Assembly: GCA_027021705.1 (NCBI GenBank)
Contig: JALUTT010000054.1
Coordinates: forward strand, 1 to 12,674
DNA from: Anaerolineae bacterium
Lineage (GTDB): Bacteria; Chloroflexota; Anaerolineae; S140-20
DNA: 12,674 bases
Reading direction: 5' to 3'
A program made the translations under genes and the position numbers. The notes beneath the pieces were generated by a model, which was not told where the DNA came from, ran no database searches, and saw nothing but the letters and a program-made list of their open reading frames with translations. Shown here piece by piece: positions 150-12,674 of the stretch (the first letter of the stretch is position 1; each line of letters starts with the position of its first letter).

Positions 150-3100
150 GTCCCACCCCACAGAATCCCGACCGAGGGATTGAAACAGCATACTGATAAT
201 CTTCCTTGTCAACACTAATCTGAGTCCCACCCCACAGAATCCCGACCGAGGGATTGAAACTCGTATAACCATCTTAAACTCTCCTTACCGAATAAGTCCC
301 ACCCCACAGAATCCCGACCGAGGGATTGAAACATAAAGGAATTCCCTCTAGCAAAAAAGGCAGGAAAAAGTCCCACCCCACAGAATCCCGACCGAGGGAT
401 TGAAACTTCTCTTTTAATTTCGTCGGTTGCGGTGATTGTGGTCCCACCCCACAGAATCCCGACCGAGGGATTGAAACTCCCCGGCCGCATTCGATTCATC
501 TATGTAGGCGGCCGTCCCACCCCACAGAATCCCGACCGAGGGATTGAAACCGCCGGAGCCGGCCGTCCGCTCTGCGAGCAGCTCGAGTCCCACCCCACAG
601 AATCCCGACCGAGGGATTGAAACCGTGGTCGTTGTGGAACGTGCGCAGCTCTTCGGCCAGGTCCCACCCCACAGAATCCCGACCGAGGGATTGAAACCGT
701 AGGCCCCCTGCCCGGAAGTTGGTGTACATCTTGGGTCCCACCCCACAGAATCCCGACCGAGGGATTGAAACGGGCTCTATAAGGCCGGCCTGAGCACCAC
801 GGAGATCGTCCCACCCCACAGAATCCCGACCGAGGGATTGAAACCTCCTGGATGAATCCCCAGATTTTCTGGATGGCCGGGTCCCACCCCACAGAATCCC
901 GACCGAGGGATTGAAACTCTGACCGGTTTGGCCTATCTGAGACCTTAACACTCGTCCCACCCCACAGAATCCCGACCGAGGGATTGAAACACTCTATCGC
1001 CAATTGCGCCCTGATTTATTGCAACGGTCCCACCCCACAGAATCCCGACCGAGGGATTGAAACTTAAGAGCAAGGCCAGAGGATTCATCCTCTTGGGGCG
1101 TCCCACCCCACAGAATCCCGACCGAGGGATTGAAACTTATCAAGACACAATTCCAGATCCAGATATTTAAGGAGTCCCACCCCACAGAATCCCGACCGAG
1201 GGATTGAAACCATTATCACATTTAACCTATTCGGGCGCCCCGGACGGGTCCCACCCCACAGAATCCCGACCGAGGGATTGAAACAATCCGCTTTGCGTCA
1301 TTAGCAAGGCTTTTGACACAAGTCCCACCCCACAGAATCCCGACCGAGGGATTGAAACTCTGACCGGTTTGGCCTATCTGAGACCTTAACACTCGTCCCA
1401 CCCCACAGAATCCCGACCGAGGGATTGAAACAGGCGCTTCTACTTCCGCCTAGCGCTGGCGCTGGGGAGTCCCACCCCACAGAATCCCGACCGAGGGATT
1501 GAAACGAGGGATAGCGCAGCTACCGGAACCGTTCCGCCACGTCCCACCCCACAGAATCCCGACCGAGGGATTGAAACACCTTTCCGGCTCCCCAGCCGGA
1601 CCGGAGACCGGCGTCCCACCCCACAGAATCCCGACCGAGGGATTGAAACTCCCCCACGGACACCTTGTAGAGCGTGCTCTTGGCGTCCCACCCCACAGAA
1701 TCCCGACCGAGGGATTGAAACATCCCACTCTGCGGGATGGGGCTTGAGAGATTGAGCGGTCCCACCCCACAGAATCCCGACCGAGGGATTGAAACCTCGA
1801 GCAGGACCGCGAAGCGGCCCCGCTCCTCGAAGTCCCACCCCACAGAATCCCGACCGAGGGATTGAAACGGGATTCTGTGGGGCGGAGAACGCGCGACTTT
1901 AGAAAGTCCCACCCCACAGAATCCCGACCGAGGGATTGAAACATCCGGGATGCTGATGCCCTTTTCCTTGATCTGCTCGTCCCACCCCACAGAATCCCGA
2001 CCGAGGGATTGAAACGCCCTCTGGGCAATCCCCATCCTGATTAAGACCGCGTCCCACCCCACAGAATCCCGACCGAGGGATTGAAACCATTGCGGATTCC
2101 GACCGGGAAGCGGATATACCCTCCGTCCCACCCCACAGAATCCCGACCGAGGGATTGAAACCGGGGGGTGCTGCCCCGTGTCTATAGGGCTGAGGTGGTC
2201 CCACCCCACAGAATCCCGACCGAGGGATTGAAACGCAGCCCTCTTCGCTGGACAGCACGTCCACGAAGATGTCCCACCCCACAGAATCCCGACCGAGGGA
2301 TTGAAACCACCGGGATTGCTCATCGCATCAAGCGACACGCAGGCGTCCCACCCCACAGAATCCCGACCGAGGGATTGAAACCAGAAATGCCTGGAGGTTA
2401 TGCAGAATTTGGCCGAGTCCCACCCCACAGAATCCCGACCGAGGGATTGAAACTGTGCCCAGGCTGGAGGACGACGGCAAATACTATGTGGTCCCACCCC
2501 ACAGAATCCCGACCGAGGGATTGAAACCGGTCCACGTTCACCGACTATGGCCCATCCGCCGGAGTCCCACCCCACAGAATCCCGACCGAGGGATTGAAAC
2601 CTGAAGGAGGATGACTTCTCCTTCAGCATCCTCCGAGTCCCACCCCACAGAATCCCGACCGAGGGATTGAAACTGGAGGTGGTCCACGCCCCGACCGGCA
2701 ACCCCGCCTAGTCCCACCCCACAGAATCCCGACCGAGGGATTGAAACCATTAAATCTATGGTGGGAATTCCAGAAAACCGATGAGTCCCACCCCACAGAA
2801 TCCCGACCGAGGGATTGAAACCTCTAATGAGCTCCGAAACAGATTATAACGCTCAAGTCCCACCCCACAGAATCCCGACCGAGGGATTGAAACTGGCCAA
2901 ATTAGCAGTCATTCGCAATCAAAATGGCAAGTCCCACCCCACAGAATCCCGACCGAGGGATTGAAACAGGAGGAGATTAGAAAAACTAAGGCCCCGAACT
3001 AACGTCCCACCCCACAGAATCCCGACCGAGGGATTGAAACTACCTCGGCTTCTGGCCCGATTTACTTAGCTACCAGGTCCCACCCCACAGAATCCCGACC

Positions 3101-6100
3101 GAGGGATTGAAACGCAATCTTCCCCTTTTCCCGGACAAACACGGGAGAGGTCCCACCCCACAGAATCCCGACCGAGGGATTGAAACCTCCTCAGGGTTCC
3201 ACTCCACGGGAACGGGGTTGGGGGTCCCACCCCACAGAATCCCGACCGAGGGATTGAAACTTGAATTTGTTTCTCGGCCTTTAACGATTGATGGAAGTCC
3301 CACCCCACAGAATCCCGACCGAGGGATTGAAACTAGAACAGCCACTTCGAGCGTCCGACCGGGGCCAGTCCCACCCCACAGAATCCCGACCGAGGGATTG
3401 AAACTCAATAGCAATTCCAGCCCTAAATGAGAAAATTGAAGTCCCACCCCACAGAATCCCGACCGAGGGATTGAAACACCTACAATGAAGCCGTTGCGTT
3501 CTATAACAAACCGGTGTCCCACCCCACAGAATCCCGACCGAGGGATTGAAACTTCGAGGTGAACTTCTCGATGCTGAACGACGCTATTGTCCCACCCCAC
3601 AGAATCCCGACCGAGGGATTGAAACGGGAGGAGGATATAGTACTCAAGTACTACGATTAGGTCCCACCCCACAGAATCCCGACCGAGGGATTGAAACTTC
3701 CTTAATCCTCTTATTTTCCCTAACTCAATGTTAAGTCCCACCCCACAGAATCCCGACCGAGGGATTGAAACTAACAGCATTAGCAGTAAACGAAGACTTC
3801 ATCTGTAGTCCCACCCCACAGAATCCCGACCGAGGGATTGAAACTTCGACGGAGATTTTGAAGCTGTCGAAGAATTTATTGTCCCACCCCACAGAATCCC
3901 GACCGAGGGATTGAAACATTGAGCGAAACGGTCCCGTTATCGGCTACCGCTTTGGGTCCCACCCCACAGAATCCCGACCGAGGGATTGAAACTCCAAAGC
4001 CCGTTCCTTGTTGAGGTAAGCCCGAAGAGTCCCACCCCACAGAATCCCGACCGAGGGATTGAAACGCCCGGGCGCCGAGGCGCCGGCGTCGCCGGGCGAG
4101 TCCCACCCCACAGAATCCCGACCGAGGGATTGAAACGGGCCACAGGAGGGCCCGGAACCCCACGGGGATCTCCGTCCCACCCCACAGAATCCCGACCGAG
4201 GGATTGAAACGGTTCTCCGTAGCAGCCTCTCCCGCAGCCCGTCAACGTCCCACCCCACAGAATCCCGACCGAGGGATTGAAACCCGCCGCAGAACCGCCG
4301 CCACCACTCGCCCCGTCGGCGTCCCACCCCACAGAATCCCGACCGAGGGATTGAAACAGCCGGGAAGACACTTCTGGCTGGCCCTCGGCATCGGGGGTCC
4401 CACCCCACAGAATCCCGACCGAGGGATTGAAACAGCGGCTGGTTTCATTTCCCCATCTCCAGGATGGCCGGTCCCACCCCACAGAATCCCGACCGAGGGA
4501 TTGAAACCGCGAAGGGATCATCGAAGACTCCCATGACTTCCAGGTCCCACCCCACAGAATCCCGACCGAGGGATTGAAACTCCCCGGCCAGCGCGTCGAA
4601 ATCGCTCTCCTCCAGGTCCCACCCCACAGAATCCCGACCGAGGGATTGAAACAAGAACCAGGACCGGGCCACCATCGGGGGCCTTGAAGTCCCACCCCAC
4701 AGAATCCCGACCGAGGGATTGAAACCTGGCGCCGGGGGCATCCTGGCCCTCGGAGAGTCTCGTCCCACCCCACAGAATCCCGACCGAGGGATTGAAACAC
4801 GTCCTTCGTCGGCCGCCGCATATTGGCCAGCATAGTCCCACCCCACAGAATCCCGACCGAGGGATTGAAACGCCACCATCTGGGCCGCCGTCGAGCCGCT
4901 GGAGCATGTCCCACCCCACAGAATCCCGACCGAGGGATTGAAACGCCGACGCCGGCAACTTCCACGCCGAGATGGATCGGTCCCACCCCACAGAATCCCG
5001 ACCGAGGGATTGAAACCACGGCGAGGAGCCCCGCGAAGGCCCCTCGCCGGCGGGTCCCACCCCACAGAATCCCGACCGAGGGATTGAAACGGGAGCCCTC
5101 GGAATCGCCCCTCGGCATCATAGAGAGTCCCACCCCACAGAATCCCGACCGAGGGATTGAAACTCGGCCTCGGGCGCGGCCGAGGCGATGGTGGGGCTCG
5201 TCCCACCCCACAGAATCCCGACCGAGGGATTGAAACCGAGCCGGCCGAGCCGATTGACGACAAATTGAGCGCCGTCCCACCCCACAGAATCCCGACCGAG
5301 GGATTGAAACTCCGACCTGGCCGAGGCCCTCAAAAACGTGGGGCCCAGTCCCACCCCACAGAATCCCGACCGAGGGATTGAAACGAAGACCCGCACCGCC
5401 CCCTCCAGGACAGCTTGCCGGGTCCCACCCCACAGAATCCCGACCGAGGGATTGAAACCCAACCGCAGTCGTACCCTGCCCCGCACATCGAACATGTCCC
5501 ACCCCACAGAATCCCGACCGAGGGATTGAAACCGCGGCCCCCCGCCACGGGGCGTCCGGGCCGTCGTCGTCCCACCCCACAGAATCCCGACCGAGGGATT
5601 GAAACTTGTCAGGGCAACAGCAGACGGGACACTCCCCCTAGGTCCCACCCCACAGAATCCCGACCGAGGGATTGAAACCTCGTCGAAGACCAGGGTCACC
5701 GGGTAGGCGAGCCGGGTCCCACCCCACAGAATCCCGACCGAGGGATTGAAACTATACTCCACCGAAGCGTTTGTAGAGCTTGTCTGCAAGTCCCACCCCA
5801 CAGAATCCCGACCGAGGGATTGAAACTCGCCCCCGAGGAGGCAGGCGAGAGGGGACCTCGTGTCCCACCCCACAGAATCCCGACCGAGGGATTGAAACCG
5901 GTCAGCTTCTGGTCCTCAGAGCCGTTGTAGAAGGCCGGTCCCACCCCACAGAATCCCGACCGAGGGATTGAAACCTGGAAGCCTACGACATTCTGGAACA
6001 GGGTCTCAAGGTCCCACCCCACAGAATCCCGACCGAGGGATTGAAACGGTTTCCAGGTGGCAGGTGGTTCTGCCGCAGAACCAGGTCCCACCCCACAGAA

Positions 6101-9100
6101 TCCCGACCGAGGGATTGAAACATAGCCCTGCTCGCCAACCTCAATACCTGCTCGGCACGTCCCACCCCACAGAATCCCGACCGAGGGATTGAAACTCTCC
6201 CGGTCGCCACCGGAGACCAGCCGCTTGGGTCCCACCCCACAGAATCCCGACCGAGGGATTGAAACTTCCGCTCAACCTCGACATCCCAGAACGACATCAG
6301 GTCCCACCCCACAGAATCCCGACCGAGGGATTGAAACTGTCCAGGTGATGGATGACTCGGTGATACCCCCAAACGTCCCACCCCACAGAATCCCGACCGA
6401 GGGATTGAAACCCGCCAGAACGCGCAGGAGTGGTACGGCAGGATGTGTCCCACCCCACAGAATCCCGACCGAGGGATTGAAACTGTCTTTAAGGATGAGC
6501 ACCACGCCCTGGTTAACAGCGGTCCCACCCCACAGAATCCCGACCGAGGGATTGAAACCATCCAGCTAAGGACACCGGGATCAAACACCTGTGCCCGGTC
6601 CCACCCCACAGAATCCCGACCGAGGGATTGAAACCTCCTCCAGCACCCCCATTGCTTTGAGGATACCGGCCAGGTCCCACCCCACAGAATCCCGACCGAG
6701 GGATTGAAACCGCCTTGATTTCTTCCATCGCGGTCTCCTTTCCGGCGTCCCACCCCACAGAATCCCGACCGAGGGATTGAAACCGTCTTCGGGGACCGAG
6801 AGGGGGCCGGGACAGGAAATGGTCCCACCCCACAGAATCCCGACCGAGGGATTGAAACGGGCCAGAAGACGCGGAGTGTGATTCCACCACCGCGTCCCAC
6901 CCCACAGAATCCCGACCGAGGGATTGAAACACTACGTGGCTGCTCTGACCGAGGTGGCGGACGTTGGTCCCACCCCACAGAATCCCGACCGAGGGATTGA
7001 AACCGGCTGGCGGGGGCTTCTGGCGGGGCTCCGCGCCGCGTCCCACCCCACAGAATCCCGACCGAGGGATTGAAACGTTCCCGGCCCTCGCTGGGCTGGG
7101 GGGGGCGGCTCCGGTCCCACCCCACAGAATCCCGACCGAGGGATTGAAACGCTATTTGACCTGAAGCGGGCAATGGCGAGGCTGTGGTCCCACCCCACAG
7201 AATCCCGACCGAGGGATTGAAACTCAGGTGCCCTGCCGTTGACTATGCGAAGTAGGCCGTCCCACCCCACAGAATCCCGACCGAGGGATTGAAACCGGAC
7301 CTCGCCCGTCTGTTCGTCAACCGTAGTCCTGTCCCACCCCACAGAATCCCGACCGAGGGATTGAAACACCCTGCGGGACGGCGGATGTTATACTATCATC
7401 CCTGGTCCCACCCCACAGAATCCCGACCGAGGGATTGAAACCACAGGACCCGGTAGGCCCGCAGCATAGAGAGAAAGTCCCACCCCACAGAATCCCGACC
7501 GAGGGATTGAAACCAGCGCTTCCTACTTTCCCTGTTCCCGAACGGAGAGTCCCACCCCACAGAATCCCGACCGAGGGATTGAAACTCCCACGGCAGACGC
7601 ATACGGAGCAAGCTCCGGCTGGTCCCACCCCACAGAATCCCGACCGAGGGATTGAAACACCATGACGTGTCCGTCAACCTGTGCCCACATACTACGTCCC
7701 ACCCCACAGAATCCCGACCGAGGGATTGAAACCGGGAATGTGCCGACCCTGATTGAGGAATGGGAAGAGTCCCACCCCACAGAATCCCGACCGAGGGATT
7801 GAAACCCCAGACGATGGGGCGATCCGACATATCGTGTCTCAGTCCCACCCCACAGAATCCCGACCGAGGGATTGAAACGGCCGGGCGGCATATGACACCC
7901 CGACTCCCCTTGGTCCCACCCCACAGAATCCCGACCGAGGGATTGAAACCTACAATCCTTACCATGACAGCAGAGGGAGATTTGCGTCCCACCCCACAGA
8001 ATCCCGACCGAGGGATTGAAACCCCCTGGAGAGTGGAGGTCCATCGCGGCATGAGCGGGTCCCACCCCACAGAATCCCGACCGAGGGATTGAAACGGTCC
8101 AGTCCTGCGCCTCCTTCAAGAGGCGCAGGGGTCCCACCCCACAGAATCCCGACCGAGGGATTGAAACGGCCCGAAGGCCGCGGACGTAGTGGAACACCTG
8201 ATCGTCCCACCCCACAGAATCCCGACCGAGGGATTGAAACCTCTTCCCCTTGCTCTTCCCCTTTCCCTTGCTCCTGGTCCCACCCCACAGAATCCCGACC
8301 GAGGGATTGAAACGGAGAACAACCAGGTTGTATATGATGCGGAGAAGGCGTCCCACCCCACAGAATCCCGACCGAGGGATTGAAACTTCCCCTATCCCCC
8401 AGGTTTGTGGCCTTGCGCCACGGTCCCACCCCACAGAATCCCGACCGAGGGATTGAAACTTCCCTTCTTCTTCCACTCGGGAGGAGAAGTTATAAGTCCC
8501 ACCCCACAGAATCCCGACCGAGGGATTGAAACAGGACCTATGATACCCTGACCAAGGTGATCAGGGCGGTCCCACCCCACAGAATCCCGACCGAGGGATT
8601 GAAACCAGGAGTTCTAGAGAGGCATCGAGACGCCGTATCGCGTCCCACCCCACAGAATCCCGACCGAGGGATTGAAACTTTCGGGTAAATCTGTCAACCC
8701 TCTCCCAACCTCCTGGGTCCCACCCCACAGAATCCCGACCGAGGGATTGAAACGTCATACAACCACACCTTACGCGGGAGATCAACCTTGAGTCCCACCC
8801 CACAGAATCCCGACCGAGGGATTGAAACGGGCATCGAGTAGACCCCTTCTCCGGGGAGATCCTGGGTCCCACCCCACAGAATCCCGACCGAGGGATTGAA
8901 ACCCGCTTCTCAGGCGCTCTGCCTGGAAGCACCCTCGGGTCCCACCCCACAGAATCCCGACCGAGGGATTGAAACTCGGACCACCAGATGGGAGGGTCCG
9001 GGTTCGACGTGCGTCCCACCCCACAGAATCCCGACCGAGGGATTGAAACTGCAGCTCGGGGCTCAGGCTGGCGATCGCCTCCCCCAGTCCCACCCCACAG

Positions 9101-11982
9101 AATCCCGACCGAGGGATTGAAACCTATCGCTCTCCTCTTCCCGAGGAGAACCAACCGCCGTCCCACCCCACAGAATCCCGACCGAGGGATTGAAACCATA
9201 CGGATAGGGGAGTGTTCCTGCTACCAGACCCCAAGTCCCACCCCACAGAATCCCGACCGAGGGATTGAAACCAAATCCGCCGGATAGCACACGGATTAGC
9301 GTGTGATGTCCCACCCCACAGAATCCCGACCGAGGGATTGAAACCCGCCCCTGCTCTTGGAGCGGGAGCCCTTGTACTTGGTCCCACCCCACAGAATCCC
9401 GACCGAGGGATTGAAACCCGGATCATAGGCGATCAGAGCGCGGGCGACCTCGGGTCCCACCCCACAGAATCCCGACCGAGGGATTGAAACCCGCACTCCC
9501 TTTATGGAGATCGTGCTCCTCGGATAGTCCCACCCCACAGAATCCCGACCGAGGGATTGAAACGGCCAGAGCGTCTGCGTGTTGCTGGAGTTGCGTGCGG
9601 TCCCACCCCACAGAATCCCGACCGAGGGATTGAAACAACATAGCACTCGCAACCGACCGACCGATCATCTACCGTCCCACCCCACAGAATCCCGACCGAG
9701 GGATTGAAACGCTCTACCGCTGGAGGCTCAATGATGGGTTTAGCACGGTCCCACCCCACAGAATCCCGACCGAGGGATTGAAACTCTGGTTGCGCGGCCC
9801 TCTCTCTTAGCGAAGAGGGCTGTCCCACCCCACAGAATCCCGACCGAGGGATTGAAACTTTATCGGCAAAGACGTGGTATCCCACATCCTGCATGTCCCA
9901 CCCCACAGAATCCCGACCGAGGGATTGAAACGCAAATGCGATAAGGAGATCTCCGGGTCACTGGATATGTCCCACCCCACAGAATCCCGACCGAGGGATT
10001 GAAACAGCGGCTATTACCTCCTCACGCTCCAGCAGGAGGAGGTCCCACCCCACAGAATCCCGACCGAGGGATTGAAACTTGCCCACATCCGAGGTGGTAC
10101 TCCATCCCCGGCGGGTCCCACCCCACAGAATCCCGACCGAGGGATTGAAACCTGTCCAGCGAAGATGGCTGGAGCCGCGCCATAGCGGGTCCCACCCCAC
10201 AGAATCCCGACCGAGGGATTGAAACCGATCTGGTCGGGGCTGATGGGGGAGAAGCTATCCCGTCCCACCCCACAGAATCCCGACCGAGGGATTGAAACCT
10301 TCCTCCTGTAAAGGGGAAGGACAGGAACGAGAGGAGGTCCCACCCCACAGAATCCCGACCGAGGGATTGAAACCGGTTCACCCCCTCCCTTGACCGGGCT
10401 GACCTGGAGGTGTCCCACCCCACAGAATCCCGACCGAGGGATTGAAACAAGCTGGAGAGTCGCTCTTCGGTTGCGATCAGCCGCGTCCCACCCCACAGAA
10501 TCCCGACCGAGGGATTGAAACCTCTCCCACAGAATCCCGACCAAGGGATCAGCACCTTGTCCCACCCCACAGAATCCCGACCGAGGGATTGAAACGATCA
10601 GAGCGAAGAGGTTGACATCTTTTTCCGGGAAGTCCCACCCCACAGAATCCCGACCGAGGGATTGAAACCTCCCGGAGCTCCTGGGGGAGGAGTGGGAGGA
10701 GATCGTCCCACCCCACAGAATCCCGACCGAGGGATTGAAACTCCAGTGCGACTTCTCCATCATCCACGATGGAGAAGTCCCACCCCACAGAATCCCGACC
10801 GAGGGATTGAAACCATGCTGGTTTAAGTTCTTGGATGTGTTTTGAGATAAGTCCCACCCCACAGAATCCCGACCGAGGGATTGAAACGCAGCCGTAGAAG
10901 ATTAGCACGCTCTCCAACTCCCGTTGGTCCCACCCCACAGAATCCCGACCGAGGGATTGAAACAGCCCCTCCTCCCTGCCATACGCTCCCGCGCATAGCA
11001 GTCCCACCCCACAGAATCCCGACCGAGGGATTGAAACCGCAGACGGCCGTTCTCACCGTATCTGGCGGTCTTAAGTCCCACCCCACAGAATCCCGACCGA
11101 GGGATTGAAACCGGATGAGAGCCAAATCCGAGATGCGCTTGAATATGGTCCCACCCCACAGAATCCCGACCGAGGGATTGAAACCTCCTCCTTCCCACCC
11201 TGCGCCGAGGGGGAGAGCGCGGTCCCACCCCACAGAATCCCGACCGAGGGATTGAAACGGAGATATTATAGGGTTTTTTAAGAATCTGTATGATGTCCCA
11301 CCCCACAGAATCCCGACCGAGGGATTGAAACAGCAACCGGCAACCGATAGCCGACCGATCTACCGTAGTCCCACCCCACAGAATCCCGACCGAGGGATTG
11401 AAACCCTGCCCGGCGGCCTGGCGTGGGGCGCGTCCTCCCCTAGTCCCACCCCACAGAATCCCGACCGAGGGATTGAAACAGCCCCTCCTCCCTGCCATGT
11501 ACCAGCCACTAGCGCAGTCCCACCCCACAGAATCCCGACCGAGGGATTGAAACTGGGGAAGCGAGAAGTGCGGATAGAATACATGGGGGGTCCCACCCCA
11601 CAGAATCCCGACCGAGGGATTGAAACGCGATAAGGCGTCTGGAGGAAAAGCTGTCCTCCATGTCCCACCCCACAGAATCCCGACCGAGGGATTGAAACAG
11701 GGAAGAGATATGGGAACTAGTTGGAGAGGGAAGATGTCCCACCCCACAGAATCCCGACCGAGGGATTGAAACGGGGCGGTCGTCCGGTCGGTGTTGGCCT
11801 CGGGCCGCGTCCCACCCCACAGAATCCCGACCGAGGGATTGAAACCGCGCCTGCGCTGGCGCGGGCGCGGGCTCGGGCCTCGGTCCCACCCCACAGAATC
11901 CCGACCGAGGGATTGAAACGATTACATTAACATCTTGCAGCGCGGCCTTGGGCGGGTCCCACCCCACAGAATCCCGACCGAG
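150..11982 (+). CRISPR. CRISPR array: 161 full 37-bp repeats plus one truncated 27-bp repeat (11956-11982), 161 spacers of 33-39 bp (mean about 36); likely class 1, tentatively type I-D
   Basis: The repeat recurs every ~73 bp from 150-186 to 11883-11919. It contains the hairpin AATCCC-GACCGA-GGGATT and ends in ATTGAAAC, typical of Cas6-processed repeats. Orientation comes from that 3' end and the AT-rich flank on the left. Subtype is inferred from repeat length and style and from implied GTN PAMs; no cas genes are in the window. Confidence 0.99.
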
Positions 11983-11995
11983 CATCTTCTAAATT

Positions 11996-12001
11996 TGTCA
12001 A
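11996..12001 (-). promoter_or_regulatory. Consensus -35 hexamer (TTGACA) at the IS right end, facing outward
   Basis: Plus-strand tgtcaa at 11996-12001. IS110/IS1111 elements typically carry a right-end -35 that pairs with a left-end -10 at the circle junction. No -10 follows in the integrated state (GTCGGG at 17 bp). Confidence 0.6.
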
Positions 12002-12034
12002 GTCGTCGGGAGGCAGGCAGGGGGCAACGGCCGC

Positions 12035-12459
12035 AGGTTGGGGCAACCTCGGCGAAGGGAAGCGAGGGGATAACGGTTCTCTCGGTCCACGGACAGGGGT
12101 GCGATCCAGAGGGGCTACAACCGGACCAACGGGCTCCCCAAGGAGCCGCCCCGCCAGCCACGGGGAGTGAGATACGGCGTCAAGCGCCCACATCTCCCTG
12201 CGGCGCTAAGTGGGCTGCTCCCAAAGGCGGGATGAGCCTGACCACGCTAGGCAACGGCGTCAAGCGCCCAGGGGAGTTGACGGCGTCGCTCGCGCCCGTT
12301 GCGGGAGCCCCGGGGGAGCACCCCGGCCGGGCCGGGGGAACCGACCTGGCTCTGCCGGCCTCATCGGAAGGCGGGCCGGCGTCGGGGGGGCCTGGGCATC
12401 CTCTCCGGGAACCGAGGGGGGGGCACGAGGCCAGATCACGGGATCACCCCTCCCAAGGG
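12035..12459 (-). ncRNA. Putative bridge/seek RNA of the IS110-family element (boundaries approximate)
   Basis: Internal-loop modules share one layout: 8-9-nt left guide, 2 nt, inner stem-loop, 9-nt right guide. 12408-12355 matches the element end (donor-like) and 12123-12074 matches the repeat at the insertion point (target-like). Two more modules lie at 12278-12247 and 12198-12167. Small hairpins occur at 12132-12147 and 12035-12049. Confidence 0.55.
12174..12270. repeat. Perfect 17-bp direct repeat acggcgtcaagcgccca (12174-12190 and 12254-12270), with a variant third copy at about 12280-12297
   Basis: Read directly; the copies are 80 bp apart. Each forms a GGCG-CTTGA-CGCC mini-hairpin on the minus strand. 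Confidence 0.9.
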
Positions 12460-12674
12460 TCAACGGCGGCGGCCCCGCTTGCGGCGACCCCGCTTGCGGC
12501 GGCCGCCCCGCTGCTTCTTGGCCTGGCGGAAAGCCTCCCACCGCCGAGCCACCTCCGCCTCCATCTCAGGGGTGGTCTGATCCCGGAAGGGCTCATCGGC
12601 CTGCACCAGGTGGAAGCAGATCCGGTTGACCCGATGGGCGGCGTGGATGGTCGCTTCCACCTCGCTCTTGCCCC
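12460..12674 (-). CDS. C-terminal end of a probable IS110-family transposase/recombinase; 5' part lies beyond the window
   Basis: The frame is open to the window edge: GKSEVEATIHAAHRVNRICFHLVQADEPFRDQ...RRKRGRRKRGRRR* (stop at 12460-12462). GK-x4-A-x-I-x-A-A-x-R-x2-R-I-x3-L-x4-EPF resembles the usual IS110 C-terminal helix (GK..K.A.vA.ArKL.ri...l....py). Recognised by eye; the catalytic domains are not in view. Confidence 0.72.
   Translation of the reverse strand, partial: GKSEVEATIHAAHRVNRICFHLVQADEPFRDQTTPEMEAEVARRWEAFRQAKKQRGGRRKRGRRKRGRRR
12473..12501. repeat. 15-bp-period tandem duplication encoding the RRKRG-RRKRG basic tail
   Basis: ccccgcttgcggcg at 12473-12486 and 12488-12501. Confidence 0.85.

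Follow-up and report, generated by a model that had tools for sequence, protein, structure and literature searches.

A 17-nt hairpin sequence that occurs twice near one end of a 12,674-nt contig of an Anaerolineae bacterium probably caps, with its two copies, the two binding loops of an ordinary bridge RNA, in which one loop (module B) would read the target and the other (module C) the donor. The non-coding region 3′ of the gene in an IS110-family element would encode this bridge (seek) RNA; the element homes to CRISPR repeats and inserts at a fixed place in them. Bridge and seek RNAs were discovered only recently, and the natural variants examined in detail are few so far. The candidate described here is distinctive in lying downstream of its gene while having the IS110-type strand order, in its unusual length, in its transposase of approximately 500 amino acids, in its two near-identical hairpin handles, and in its occurrence at a single fixed position within CRISPR repeats belonging to at least eleven families.

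The window, as the whole stretch analyzed is called here, is the entire contig. It contains a CRISPR array (150–11955, plus strand) of 161 repeats of GTCCCACCCCACAGAATCCCGACCGAGGGATTGAAAC (family F1), with the first copy at 150 and the last at 11883. By the crRNA handle rule, which orients an array through the 3′ end of its repeat, the crRNA sense is probably that of the plus strand, as indicated by the repeat 3′ end ATTGAAAC and an AT-rich stretch at 100–149. The array is followed by a truncated repeat (11956–11980, minus strand; CGGTCGGGATTCTGTGGGGTGGGAC in the sense of the element), which constitutes the right half of the target; the next full repeat reads ...TTTCAATCCCT|CGGTCGGG... At position 11981, the minus strand (...CTTGACAAATTTAGAAGATGCT) adjoins this repeat, whose first 12 nt are absent. 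Positions 11981–12674, read in the minus sense, are assigned by sequence comparison to the right end of a multicopy IS110-family insertion sequence. The terminus itself (11981–12004, minus strand) reads ...GACTTGACAAATTTAGAAGATG-CT, with CT as the terminal core, and contains an outward-facing TTGACA at 11996–12001, 15 nt from the tip. The 3′ non-coding region (11981–12459, minus strand), approximately 480 nt in length between the transposase stop codon and the terminus, is the candidate bridge/seek RNA gene, with a structured domain at approximately 12016–12297. It aligns with the corresponding regions of the related loci L023, L019, L027a, L033, L036 and L037.

The last 70 codons of the IS110-family transposase and its stop codon (12460–12462) occupy 12460–12674 on the minus strand, where the reading frame ends in an arginine-rich tail and the gene is cut short by the end of the contig. 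When 40 relatives were searched at the DNA level, a single weak match was obtained, and this match led to another genome of the class (G021) containing a 522-aa gene, approximately 730 non-coding bases, a terminus reading ...CTTGACAAATTCTTACAATGCT and then a truncated CRISPR repeat. The G021 protein (P0002) scored 25.1 bits against Transposase_20 (PF02371; cut-off 21.3) and 16.6 bits, below the cut-off of 29, against DEDD_Tnp_IS110 (PF01548), and the tail encoded in the window is 38% identical to its residues 461–508. Readings of the region as a tracrRNA or CAST, a TnpB omega RNA or a group II intron (no Rfam match) were dropped after this IS110-type transposase was found; a scan of the window against Rfam gave no match at E values up to 1.

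A complete window-type element was found at L023, between two CRISPR arrays of different families. There, an array that ends with GTTTCAATCCCC is followed by a left end that begins with GGTATAAACATGAGAG, a gene of 498 aa, a non-coding stretch of 466 bases, a right end the same as that of the window, and the second array. The L023 protein (P0003) scored 46.6 bits for PF02371 (cut-off 21.3) and 36.3 bits for PF01548 (cut-off 29), carries GFDPIADGSG, which fits the G..P....SG serine motif of the Tnp domain (PF02371), and matches the solved transposases of IS621 and ISCro4 with E values of 6.4e-5 and 1.6e-5, respectively. The protein fragment encoded in the window lies beyond the PF02371 domain and aligns with the P0003 tail, being 65% identical to residues 430–498 (the last 69; E 3.2e-24). 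At the other end of the protein, the end of contig C71, from the genome to which the window belongs, encodes an N-terminus with LDIGKNVHW that is 73% identical to P0003 residues 2–65. A PF01548 search of this assembly, which is 94.9% complete and in which the element body was not assembled, gave no match. Homologous proteins numbered 277 at E ≤ 1e-5 among 8000 scored candidates, including P0004–P0068, with at least 66% identity over at least 94% of the query and mostly on contigs of approximately 2 kb. Matches at E ≤ 1e-20 were present in 18 of 401 sampled genomes of the class, this genome included.

The segment 11981–12621 was found to recur within the genome on contigs C86, C104, C106, C121 and C140 with 96–99% identity. 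At the equivalent place, the terminus is joined to three repeat families, namely F1 (C54 and C106), F2 (C86 and C121) and F3 (C104), and all five right-end junctions in this genome lie inside CRISPR repeats. Since one terminus is joined to three repeat families, the segment belongs to a multicopy mobile element and not to a leader; the candidate reading as a conserved CRISPR leader was rejected on this ground and because the adjoining repeat is truncated. Upstream of 12621, the copies on C86 and C140 run into a satellite of approximately 200 bp in place of the gene. A near-identical copy at L026 sits in a fourth repeat family.

A scan of metagenomes with the terminus motif gave 18 matches at 17 loci, from which L029 and L031 were dropped for a terminus not ending in GCT. 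The rows are partly non-independent, in that L024 is the window, L022 and L030 duplicate contigs of the same genome, L035 and L016 are one contig, to which L025 is nearly identical. The right-end termini of all 16 matches kept end in CT. A second copy of the flank was found within the same locus for 13 of the 16. In 12 of these, the bases before it are the left portion of a repeat, with ...CC-CT, -CC or -CA at its end; in the thirteenth, L028, a sister element's terminus takes that place. The repeat families that host the terminus number at least eleven, and the left junctions of L023, L028, L027b and L032 lie at the matching place in the repeat. The left halves of the observed targets share ...TCA(A/G)(T)CCC-CT, and the right halves share nothing. 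One relative, L036 (genome G087), is located outside any CRISPR array.

Insertion was thus found to be site-specific, flanked by the core dinucleotide and without terminal inverted repeats. Between the two ends of L023, the longest match in inverted orientation is 7 nt, which was equalled in 63 of 200 shuffles, and subterminal inverted repeats of 7–17 bp of the IS1111 type are absent from these ends. By its inverted repeats, then, the element is not of the IS1111 type, which it resembles in the downstream position of its non-coding region alone. The left ends of L023, C71 and L028 start with GG-TATAAA. If the ends were joined in a circle, the TTGACA of the right end and the TATAAA of the left end of these relatives would come to lie 17 nt apart, as in other IS110 elements; a circle junction was not seen among public DNA contigs.

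On the minus strand of the window, TGGGCGCTTGACGCCGT is present twice, at 12254–12270 (copy 1) and 12174–12190 (copy 2), with a spacing of 80 nt. The original prediction of an identical 17-bp scaffold between differing flanks is exact in sequence and position. Module B reads AACTCCCC-TG-GGCG-CTTGA-CGCC-GTTGCCTAG (minus strand, 12278–12247), and module C reads GGGAGATG-TG-GGCG-CTTGA-CGCC-GTATCTCAC (minus strand, 12198–12167). Allowing up to two mismatches, exactly two matches of the 17-mer occur in the window versus 0.01 expected, and two matches were reached in none of 200 dinucleotide-preserving shuffles, which is far above chance. Across the 5.19-Mb assembly, four exact matches and one with a single mismatch were detected, all within copies of one element (two on C54, two on C86 and one on C104), and a control with the reversed pattern gave no match in the whole assembly. 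At their full extent, module B, the candidate target-binding loop (12247–12281, minus strand), comprises a 5′ strand GTCAACTCCCCT, the apical hairpin GGCG-CTTGA-CGCC and a 3′ strand GTTGCCT-AG-CG, and module C, the candidate donor-binding loop (12165–12204, minus strand), comprises a basal stem GCCGC/GTGGC, a 5′ strand AGGGAGATGTG, the same apical hairpin and a 3′ strand GTATCTCACTCCCC. In anatomy, each corresponds to a binding loop of a bridge RNA, with a stem at the base, a small hairpin at the apex and two single strands. The earlier description of guide-like loops of a bridge RNA holds as regards this anatomy, in the 3′ non-coding region of an IS110 element, and fails as regards the extra or relic status given to the loops.

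Modules B and C were found in the same order in all eight window-type non-coding regions compared (the window, the C86 copy, L036, L023, L027a, L019 and the more distant L033 and L037) and also, 73 nt apart, in a mini-element at L028, a 415-nt transposase-less derivative of the sister element. The B-to-C spacing is 80–115 nt in the eight regions and 73–115 nt with L028 included, and in sequences with a complete right end, module C lies 204–214 nt from it. The number of modules, for which a comparison across homologues had been proposed, is constant at two, and no further loop pair conserved across the relatives was found. Module B stems are GGCG/CGCC in six sequences and GACG/CGTC in two. Those of module C are GGCG/CGCC, TGGC/GCCG, GCCC/GGGC and CGCC/GGCG in the window-type clade, GGCC/GGCC in L028, and GACC/GGUC, GGCC/GGCC and GAUC/GGUC in the L012-type clade, in which L032 has a long insertion in the module C loop. 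The basal stem of module C covaries as well, from GCCG.. to GUUC/GAAC in L033. Since pairing is kept while sequence changes, the hairpins are judged to be genuine structures of RNA or of a single strand. Across most relatives, the hairpin of B resembles that of C without being identical to it, and in L036 only the loop differs; the perfect identity in the window is therefore specific to its lineage.

The same compensatory changes bear on the reading of the 17-mers as DNA, that is, as subterminal transposase-binding repeats or promoter −35 boxes (TTGACG). Within the right end of a mobile element, the 17-mers form direct repeats, and they contain TTGAC, like the terminal TTGACA. However, pairing that is kept while sequence changes is a property of a folded strand and not of a duplex binding site, there is no −10 element 17 nt downstream of either copy, and a promoter-seeking MITE in C86 was found to be inserted at the terminal TTGACA and not at the 17-mers. 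Action of the 17-mers as DNA can hardly be credited on this evidence.

The fold of the whole domain was examined at two levels. A long-range closing helix was obtained with RNAalifold from five sequences (columns 49–64 with 359–374), with its 5′ strand (GGGCGCGAGCGAC) at 12285–12297 and its 3′ strand (GTTGCCCCCTGCC) at 12016–12028, both on the minus strand. The motif is kept in both clades; in alignment A2 (the window, L023, L019, L027a and L033) the helix pairs GGGCAGGGGCGAC with GUUGCCCCCUGCC, and the window version has two mismatches. A single-sequence fold of 12010–12300 gave a z-score of −0.90, with 34 of 200 shuffles folding as well, and pairs the two 17-mers with each other. An alternative pairing proposed by RNAalifold for module B, CGUCA/UGGCG, was dropped, as two of its five pairs are broken in one or two of the five sequences and GGCG/CGCC shows compensatory change instead.

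The flanks of the two modules were compared in five sequences sharing the same element ends (the window, L036, L023, L027a and L019). The module C flanks, AGATGT and GTATCTCAC, are invariant in all five, whereas the module B flanks are invariant at 3 of 12 positions on the 5′ side and 6 of 12 on the 3′ side. Conservation of the flanks to the degree of the scaffold had been named in advance as evidence against additional guide loops; the C flanks are indeed as conserved as the scaffold or more so, and the B flanks vary. At the non-CRISPR site of L036, the B flanks are different and the C flanks unchanged. Fixed C flanks and variable B flanks are the pattern to which the assignment of C to the donor and B to the target refers.

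For module C, the 4-mer two positions before the stem is, in four clades, the same as the four bases that immediately precede the terminal CT. The pairs of donor 4-mer and right end are GAUG/GATG in the window type and in L033, GACG/GACG in the C71 type in L028, and AAUG/AATG in the L012 type, and this covariation at two positions marks the left donor guide. The match is less distinct when lengthened: as a 7-mer it is not unique, since the terminal hairpin of L023 offers a better match (7/7), and in L012, L025 and L032, where chance matches score higher, the module C strand lies outside the top three donor matches. The core positions between donor match and stem read UG, UU, UC, GU, AC or AU, not CU.

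For module B, the 5′ strand is C-rich and ends in CCCCU or similar in every element residing in a CRISPR repeat. In all five L012-type regions (approximately 700 nt), the best same-sense match to the left half-site and core is the strand just 5′ of the B-equivalent hairpin. This strand is CAGUCCCCU, to which the left half-site and core fit at 9 of 9 positions in L027b, and in L025 it has changed to CAGUGCCCU along with the target, CAGTATCCT. In L028, UCAUUCCCCU fits TCAACCCCCT at eight positions plus one wobble out of ten. The 3′ strand of module B contains AG, the complement of the CT core, followed by C in all sequences, and the CT/AG pairing formerly noted for the B flanks is as described. 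Strands matching the left half of the target (B) and of the donor (C) were thus found in two internal loops, with a weak fit of B in the window, where the left guide fits the window's own targets, without gaps, over a short length (F1, 4 contiguous bases; F2, approximately 6). The B flanks of the window and L023 differ, although one kind of repeat holds both, and the left flank of L036 fits its own B strand at 6 of 9 positions in a register unsuited to the window. The guide comparison covered approximately nine related sequences. On these data, what is directly observed is where the modules lie, how they are conserved and covary, and to which family the protein belongs.

The mechanism suggested by these fits is as follows. 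The region would be transcribed, and the 5′ strand of module B, ...CUCCCCU, having the same sense as the left half-site and core (...TCCC-CT), would base-pair with the target's bottom strand, with the conserved AG of the 3′ strand complementing the CT core. The 5′ strand of module C, ..GAGAUG.., has in turn the same sense as the last bases of the right end, ..AGATG-CT. The small GC hairpins would serve as handles, held alike by the transposase in both loops, which may be why they are similar in every lineage and identical in that of the window.

On the right-hand side, the fits are poor. Right half-sites predicted from the 3′ strand of module B do not match the actual flanks of the window (CGGTC, CTTCA, AATCA and CGTGT), nor those of L023, L027a, L019 and most L012-type elements; the fits are partial in L033 (5 of 6, with a wobble), L025 (5 of 7) and L036 (3 bases). 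A search for a right donor guide found no strand complementary to the left end (GGTATAAAC). Hence 3′ strands complementary to the right halves of target and donor, core included, were not recognized. The missing right-hand guides lower the claim of a canonical bridge RNA, but not that of a half-site, bridge-like action.

The same absence of right-hand guides from modules B and C would be expected if the two hairpins were structural or protein-binding handles only, with the strands that read target and donor located elsewhere in the 480-nt region. A candidate location is 12063–12087, where GACCGAG complements CT+CGGTC of F1 and CCCTCG repeats the F1 core region; GACCGAG is the sole 7/7 antisense match to the F1 core and right half-site in the region. 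In L023, CTTCGGG likewise matches the other of its flanking repeats at 7/7, and the terminal hairpin contains a match of 8/9 to the donor. However, these matches fall in different, poorly conserved columns in the window and L023 despite the same repeat type, and a 7/7 match in approximately 450 nt is estimated to be expected about once in ten tries (4 and 2 targets). Segments 12081–12087 and 12063–12068 were accordingly rejected as guides, since they match F1 and are not conserved in L023. The variable B flanks beside fixed C flanks and the donor covariation are also left unexplained if the hairpins are handles and nothing more, which makes this an unlikely account, though one deserving some weight.

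In the original prediction, B and C were guide loops, either additional or relic, that accompany the real donor and target loops and that, as an array, would record or broaden the target range. Multi-target behavior is real, since a near-identical element has entered at least three repeat families here (F1, F2 and F3) and a fourth in L026, and the B flanks vary between lineages and strains (12275 A>T). However, the same two modules occur in the same order in the eight relatives and the L028 mini-element, with invariant C flanks, which does not fit an array of extra or relic loops. Neither of the sites predicted from the flanks, AACTCCC-CT-AGGCA and GGGAGAT-GT-GAGAT, occurs exactly anywhere in the genome; at up to two mismatches, the 20 and 36 matches found lie at the level of shuffled-pattern controls (6–55 and 12–40, respectively). 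The second of these sites is near-palindromic because the C flanks are complementary to each other. None of the five right-end junctions in this genome, all in CRISPR repeats, and none of the 16 right-end junctions examined in the scan is at a predicted site. In addition, several targets have one left half-site in common, which a single loop can explain. Extra guides extending the target range are not supported, and the array of additional or relic loops is considered very improbable.

The preferred reading, B as target loop and C as donor loop, can be compared with the characterized systems. In bridge RNAs, a loop is described as pairing through its 5′ strand with the bottom strand (8–9 nt) and through its 3′ strand with the top strand (4–7 nt), both including the core; the 5′ strand has the sense of the left half and core, and the 3′ strand complements the core and right half (PMC11208160). 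Two handshake bases are described after the 3′ strand of the loop (PMC11208158). The present element resembles IS621, as presented in the main accounts (Durrant et al., 2024, PMC11208160; Hiraizumi et al., 2024, PMC11208158), in having a DEDD/Tnp transposase and a two-loop RNA with a small hairpin atop each loop, loop 5′ strands that share their sense with the left half of the target or donor, CT as the core, a right end with an outward −35, and the absence of long inverted repeats, whether terminal or subterminal. It differs from IS621 in that its RNA lies downstream of the gene (upstream in IS621), its folded domain is approximately 290 nt (approximately 450 nt in the L012-type clade) versus 150–250 nt, and its transposase is approximately 500 aa versus 300–460. 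Further differences are the unrecognizable right-hand guides, the CRISPR repeat as target and the use of the same RNA at several repeat families.

The IS1111-family seekRNAs of ISEc11, ISPa11 and ISKpn4 (Siddiquee et al., 2024, PMC11187229) are similar in that the guide-RNA region is downstream of the transposase gene and the target matches are short and overlap at the insertion point. In IS1111-type seekRNAs, as described there, the strand order is reversed: these RNAs are 82–96 nt and have the top-strand match 5′ of the bottom-strand match, whereas the element studied here follows the IS110 type, with the same-sense (bottom-strand) match on the 5′ side. The 7–17-bp subterminal inverted repeats of IS1111 elements (PMC11187229) are absent here. 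A 3′ non-coding region is reported for some IS110-type groups as well (PMC11187229).

As regards the choice of target, IS1000A/B of Thermus thermophilus, of the IS110 family, has an annotated end identical to 32 bp of the host CRISPR repeats (Blesa et al., 2019, PMC6352166). This suggests residence of IS1000A/B in CRISPR repeats and is the nearest hint in the literature to IS110 elements targeting them; the likeness is one of description only, and neither targeted insertion nor a guide RNA is described in that paper (PMC6352166). Among the papers listed in literature searches, none otherwise described IS110 elements targeting CRISPR repeats. Tn7-like transposons in cyanobacteria (Mob DNA 2025, PMC11837452) are described as making the same choice of target, as small multicopy elements in CRISPR arrays, with the wholly different machinery of TnsB, TnsC and TniQ. 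These transposons may be related to a second element type seen here (end A/end B).

What would allow one RNA to serve many repeat families? Because the right halves of the observed targets share nothing and the left halves are alike, the sequences suggest that the left half-site alone suffices for the choice of target. A broader proposal, which is put forward tentatively and is judged possible but short of an even chance, is that the clade homes to CRISPR arrays by reading the left half-site only and tolerates any right half, so that one RNA serves many families, and that the target and donor hairpins evolve in concert as one protein surface holds both. The left half-site shared by many repeat families would, under this tentative proposal, be the reverse complement of the crRNA handle and a C-rich stem arm, ending in CT. 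Half-match recombination is reportedly the subject of a 2026 preprint that is in line with a sufficient left half-site. If the proposal is true, it represents a natural half-site mode of bridge recombination. Reading of the left half-site alone would bear on how much pairing bridge recombinases need and on the colonization, and perhaps disruption, of CRISPR arrays by mobile elements.

The module C flanks are self-complementary (GAGAU/AUCUC), so that a plain extended hairpin is possible there; this self-complementarity, GAGAT/ATCTC in the DNA, had been noted as a caveat and is as described. A look through public sequencing runs recovered the stretch in DNA contigs and in no RNA run. Strain variants in these public DNA contigs were found in the loop of module C (12182), in the 5′ strand of module B (12275, where A>T alters that strand) and between the modules (12239 and 12240). 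The variable loop base of 17-mer copy 2, 12182 A>G on the plus strand, gives a CTCGA loop and is present in the C86 copy and in one run.

The CRISPR repeats are entered by a whole clade of IS110-family elements at one fixed position, directly past the C-rich stem arm. Such insertions were observed in the window at positions 11956-12004 and at loci L019-L035, L012, L016, L058 and L062 of the compared set, and the clade was found to hit at least 11 repeat families. In one repeat family, insertions by two sister clades (L034 versus L020) lie 1 base apart. Outside any CRISPR array, an element of the window type, with a protein identity of 71%, is located at L036 (1430-3407) in another genome, G087, where its flanks read ...GACCTTACG and AATTGGATTC...

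Several derivatives and rearranged copies of the element were also observed. Locus L028 (138-564) contains, within a repeat of the CRISPR family F2, a 415-nt derivative of a sister element without a transposase, which consists of the non-coding region with modules B and C, the two candidate bridge-RNA loops, together with the right end and nothing else; a complete copy lies three repeats beyond it. In contig C71 of the same genome as the window (43040-43338; loci L014 and L055), a terminus resembling the right end, TTGACAAATCGAGAAGACGCT, precedes a CT, to which a left end with the first part of the transposase gene is directly joined. The ends are here connected head to tail in linear DNA, and the non-coding region upstream of this junction is only approximately 330 nt long. 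In front of shortened copies of the element, which start at window position 12621, lie a tandem satellite of approximately 200 bp and short repeats of the GAGGAC type, as seen in L003 (own contig C86; 1-945), own contig C140 (1-1500) and L021 (1-1000). In addition, the right end of one element copy on C86 is interrupted by a MITE of approximately 160 nt (L003 1561-1719), at a distance of 15 nt on the upstream side of the terminal TTGACA. The ends of this MITE are inverted and read GTGAYTGTTCCA, and its duplication is CTGCCTCC.

The same CRISPR repeats also hold a second kind of element, inserted 3-5 bp further along. One of its ends was found on own contigs C106, C86 (L003 1981-2107) and C121, and the other on C98 and C142. 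GGTTACG/CGTAACC repeats are abundant in both ends, and the insertion shows a likely duplication of 6-7 bp. Array-targeting Tn7-like transposons have been described in cyanobacteria (PMC11837452), and the second element, the body of which is missing from the assembly, may be a transposon of this type.

The array of the window itself, which belongs to repeat family F1, has further features. One spacer (1861-1897) includes an 18-base stretch (1868-1885) with 94% complementarity to the repeat of this array, and the spacer seems to have been acquired from a related CRISPR array in the opposite orientation. A 111-nt repeat-spacer-repeat unit is present as an exact duplicate inside the array (881-991 and 1322-1432). 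The first repeat is adjoined by an AT-rich sequence, TTGTCAAAAGTCCAATA.. (80-135), an inverted second copy of which is located on own contig C155 (23707-23760) at the far end of an array of the same repeat family. Thus, with respect to the direction of the repeats, the AT-rich sequence is at one end of the array in the window and at the other end in C155.
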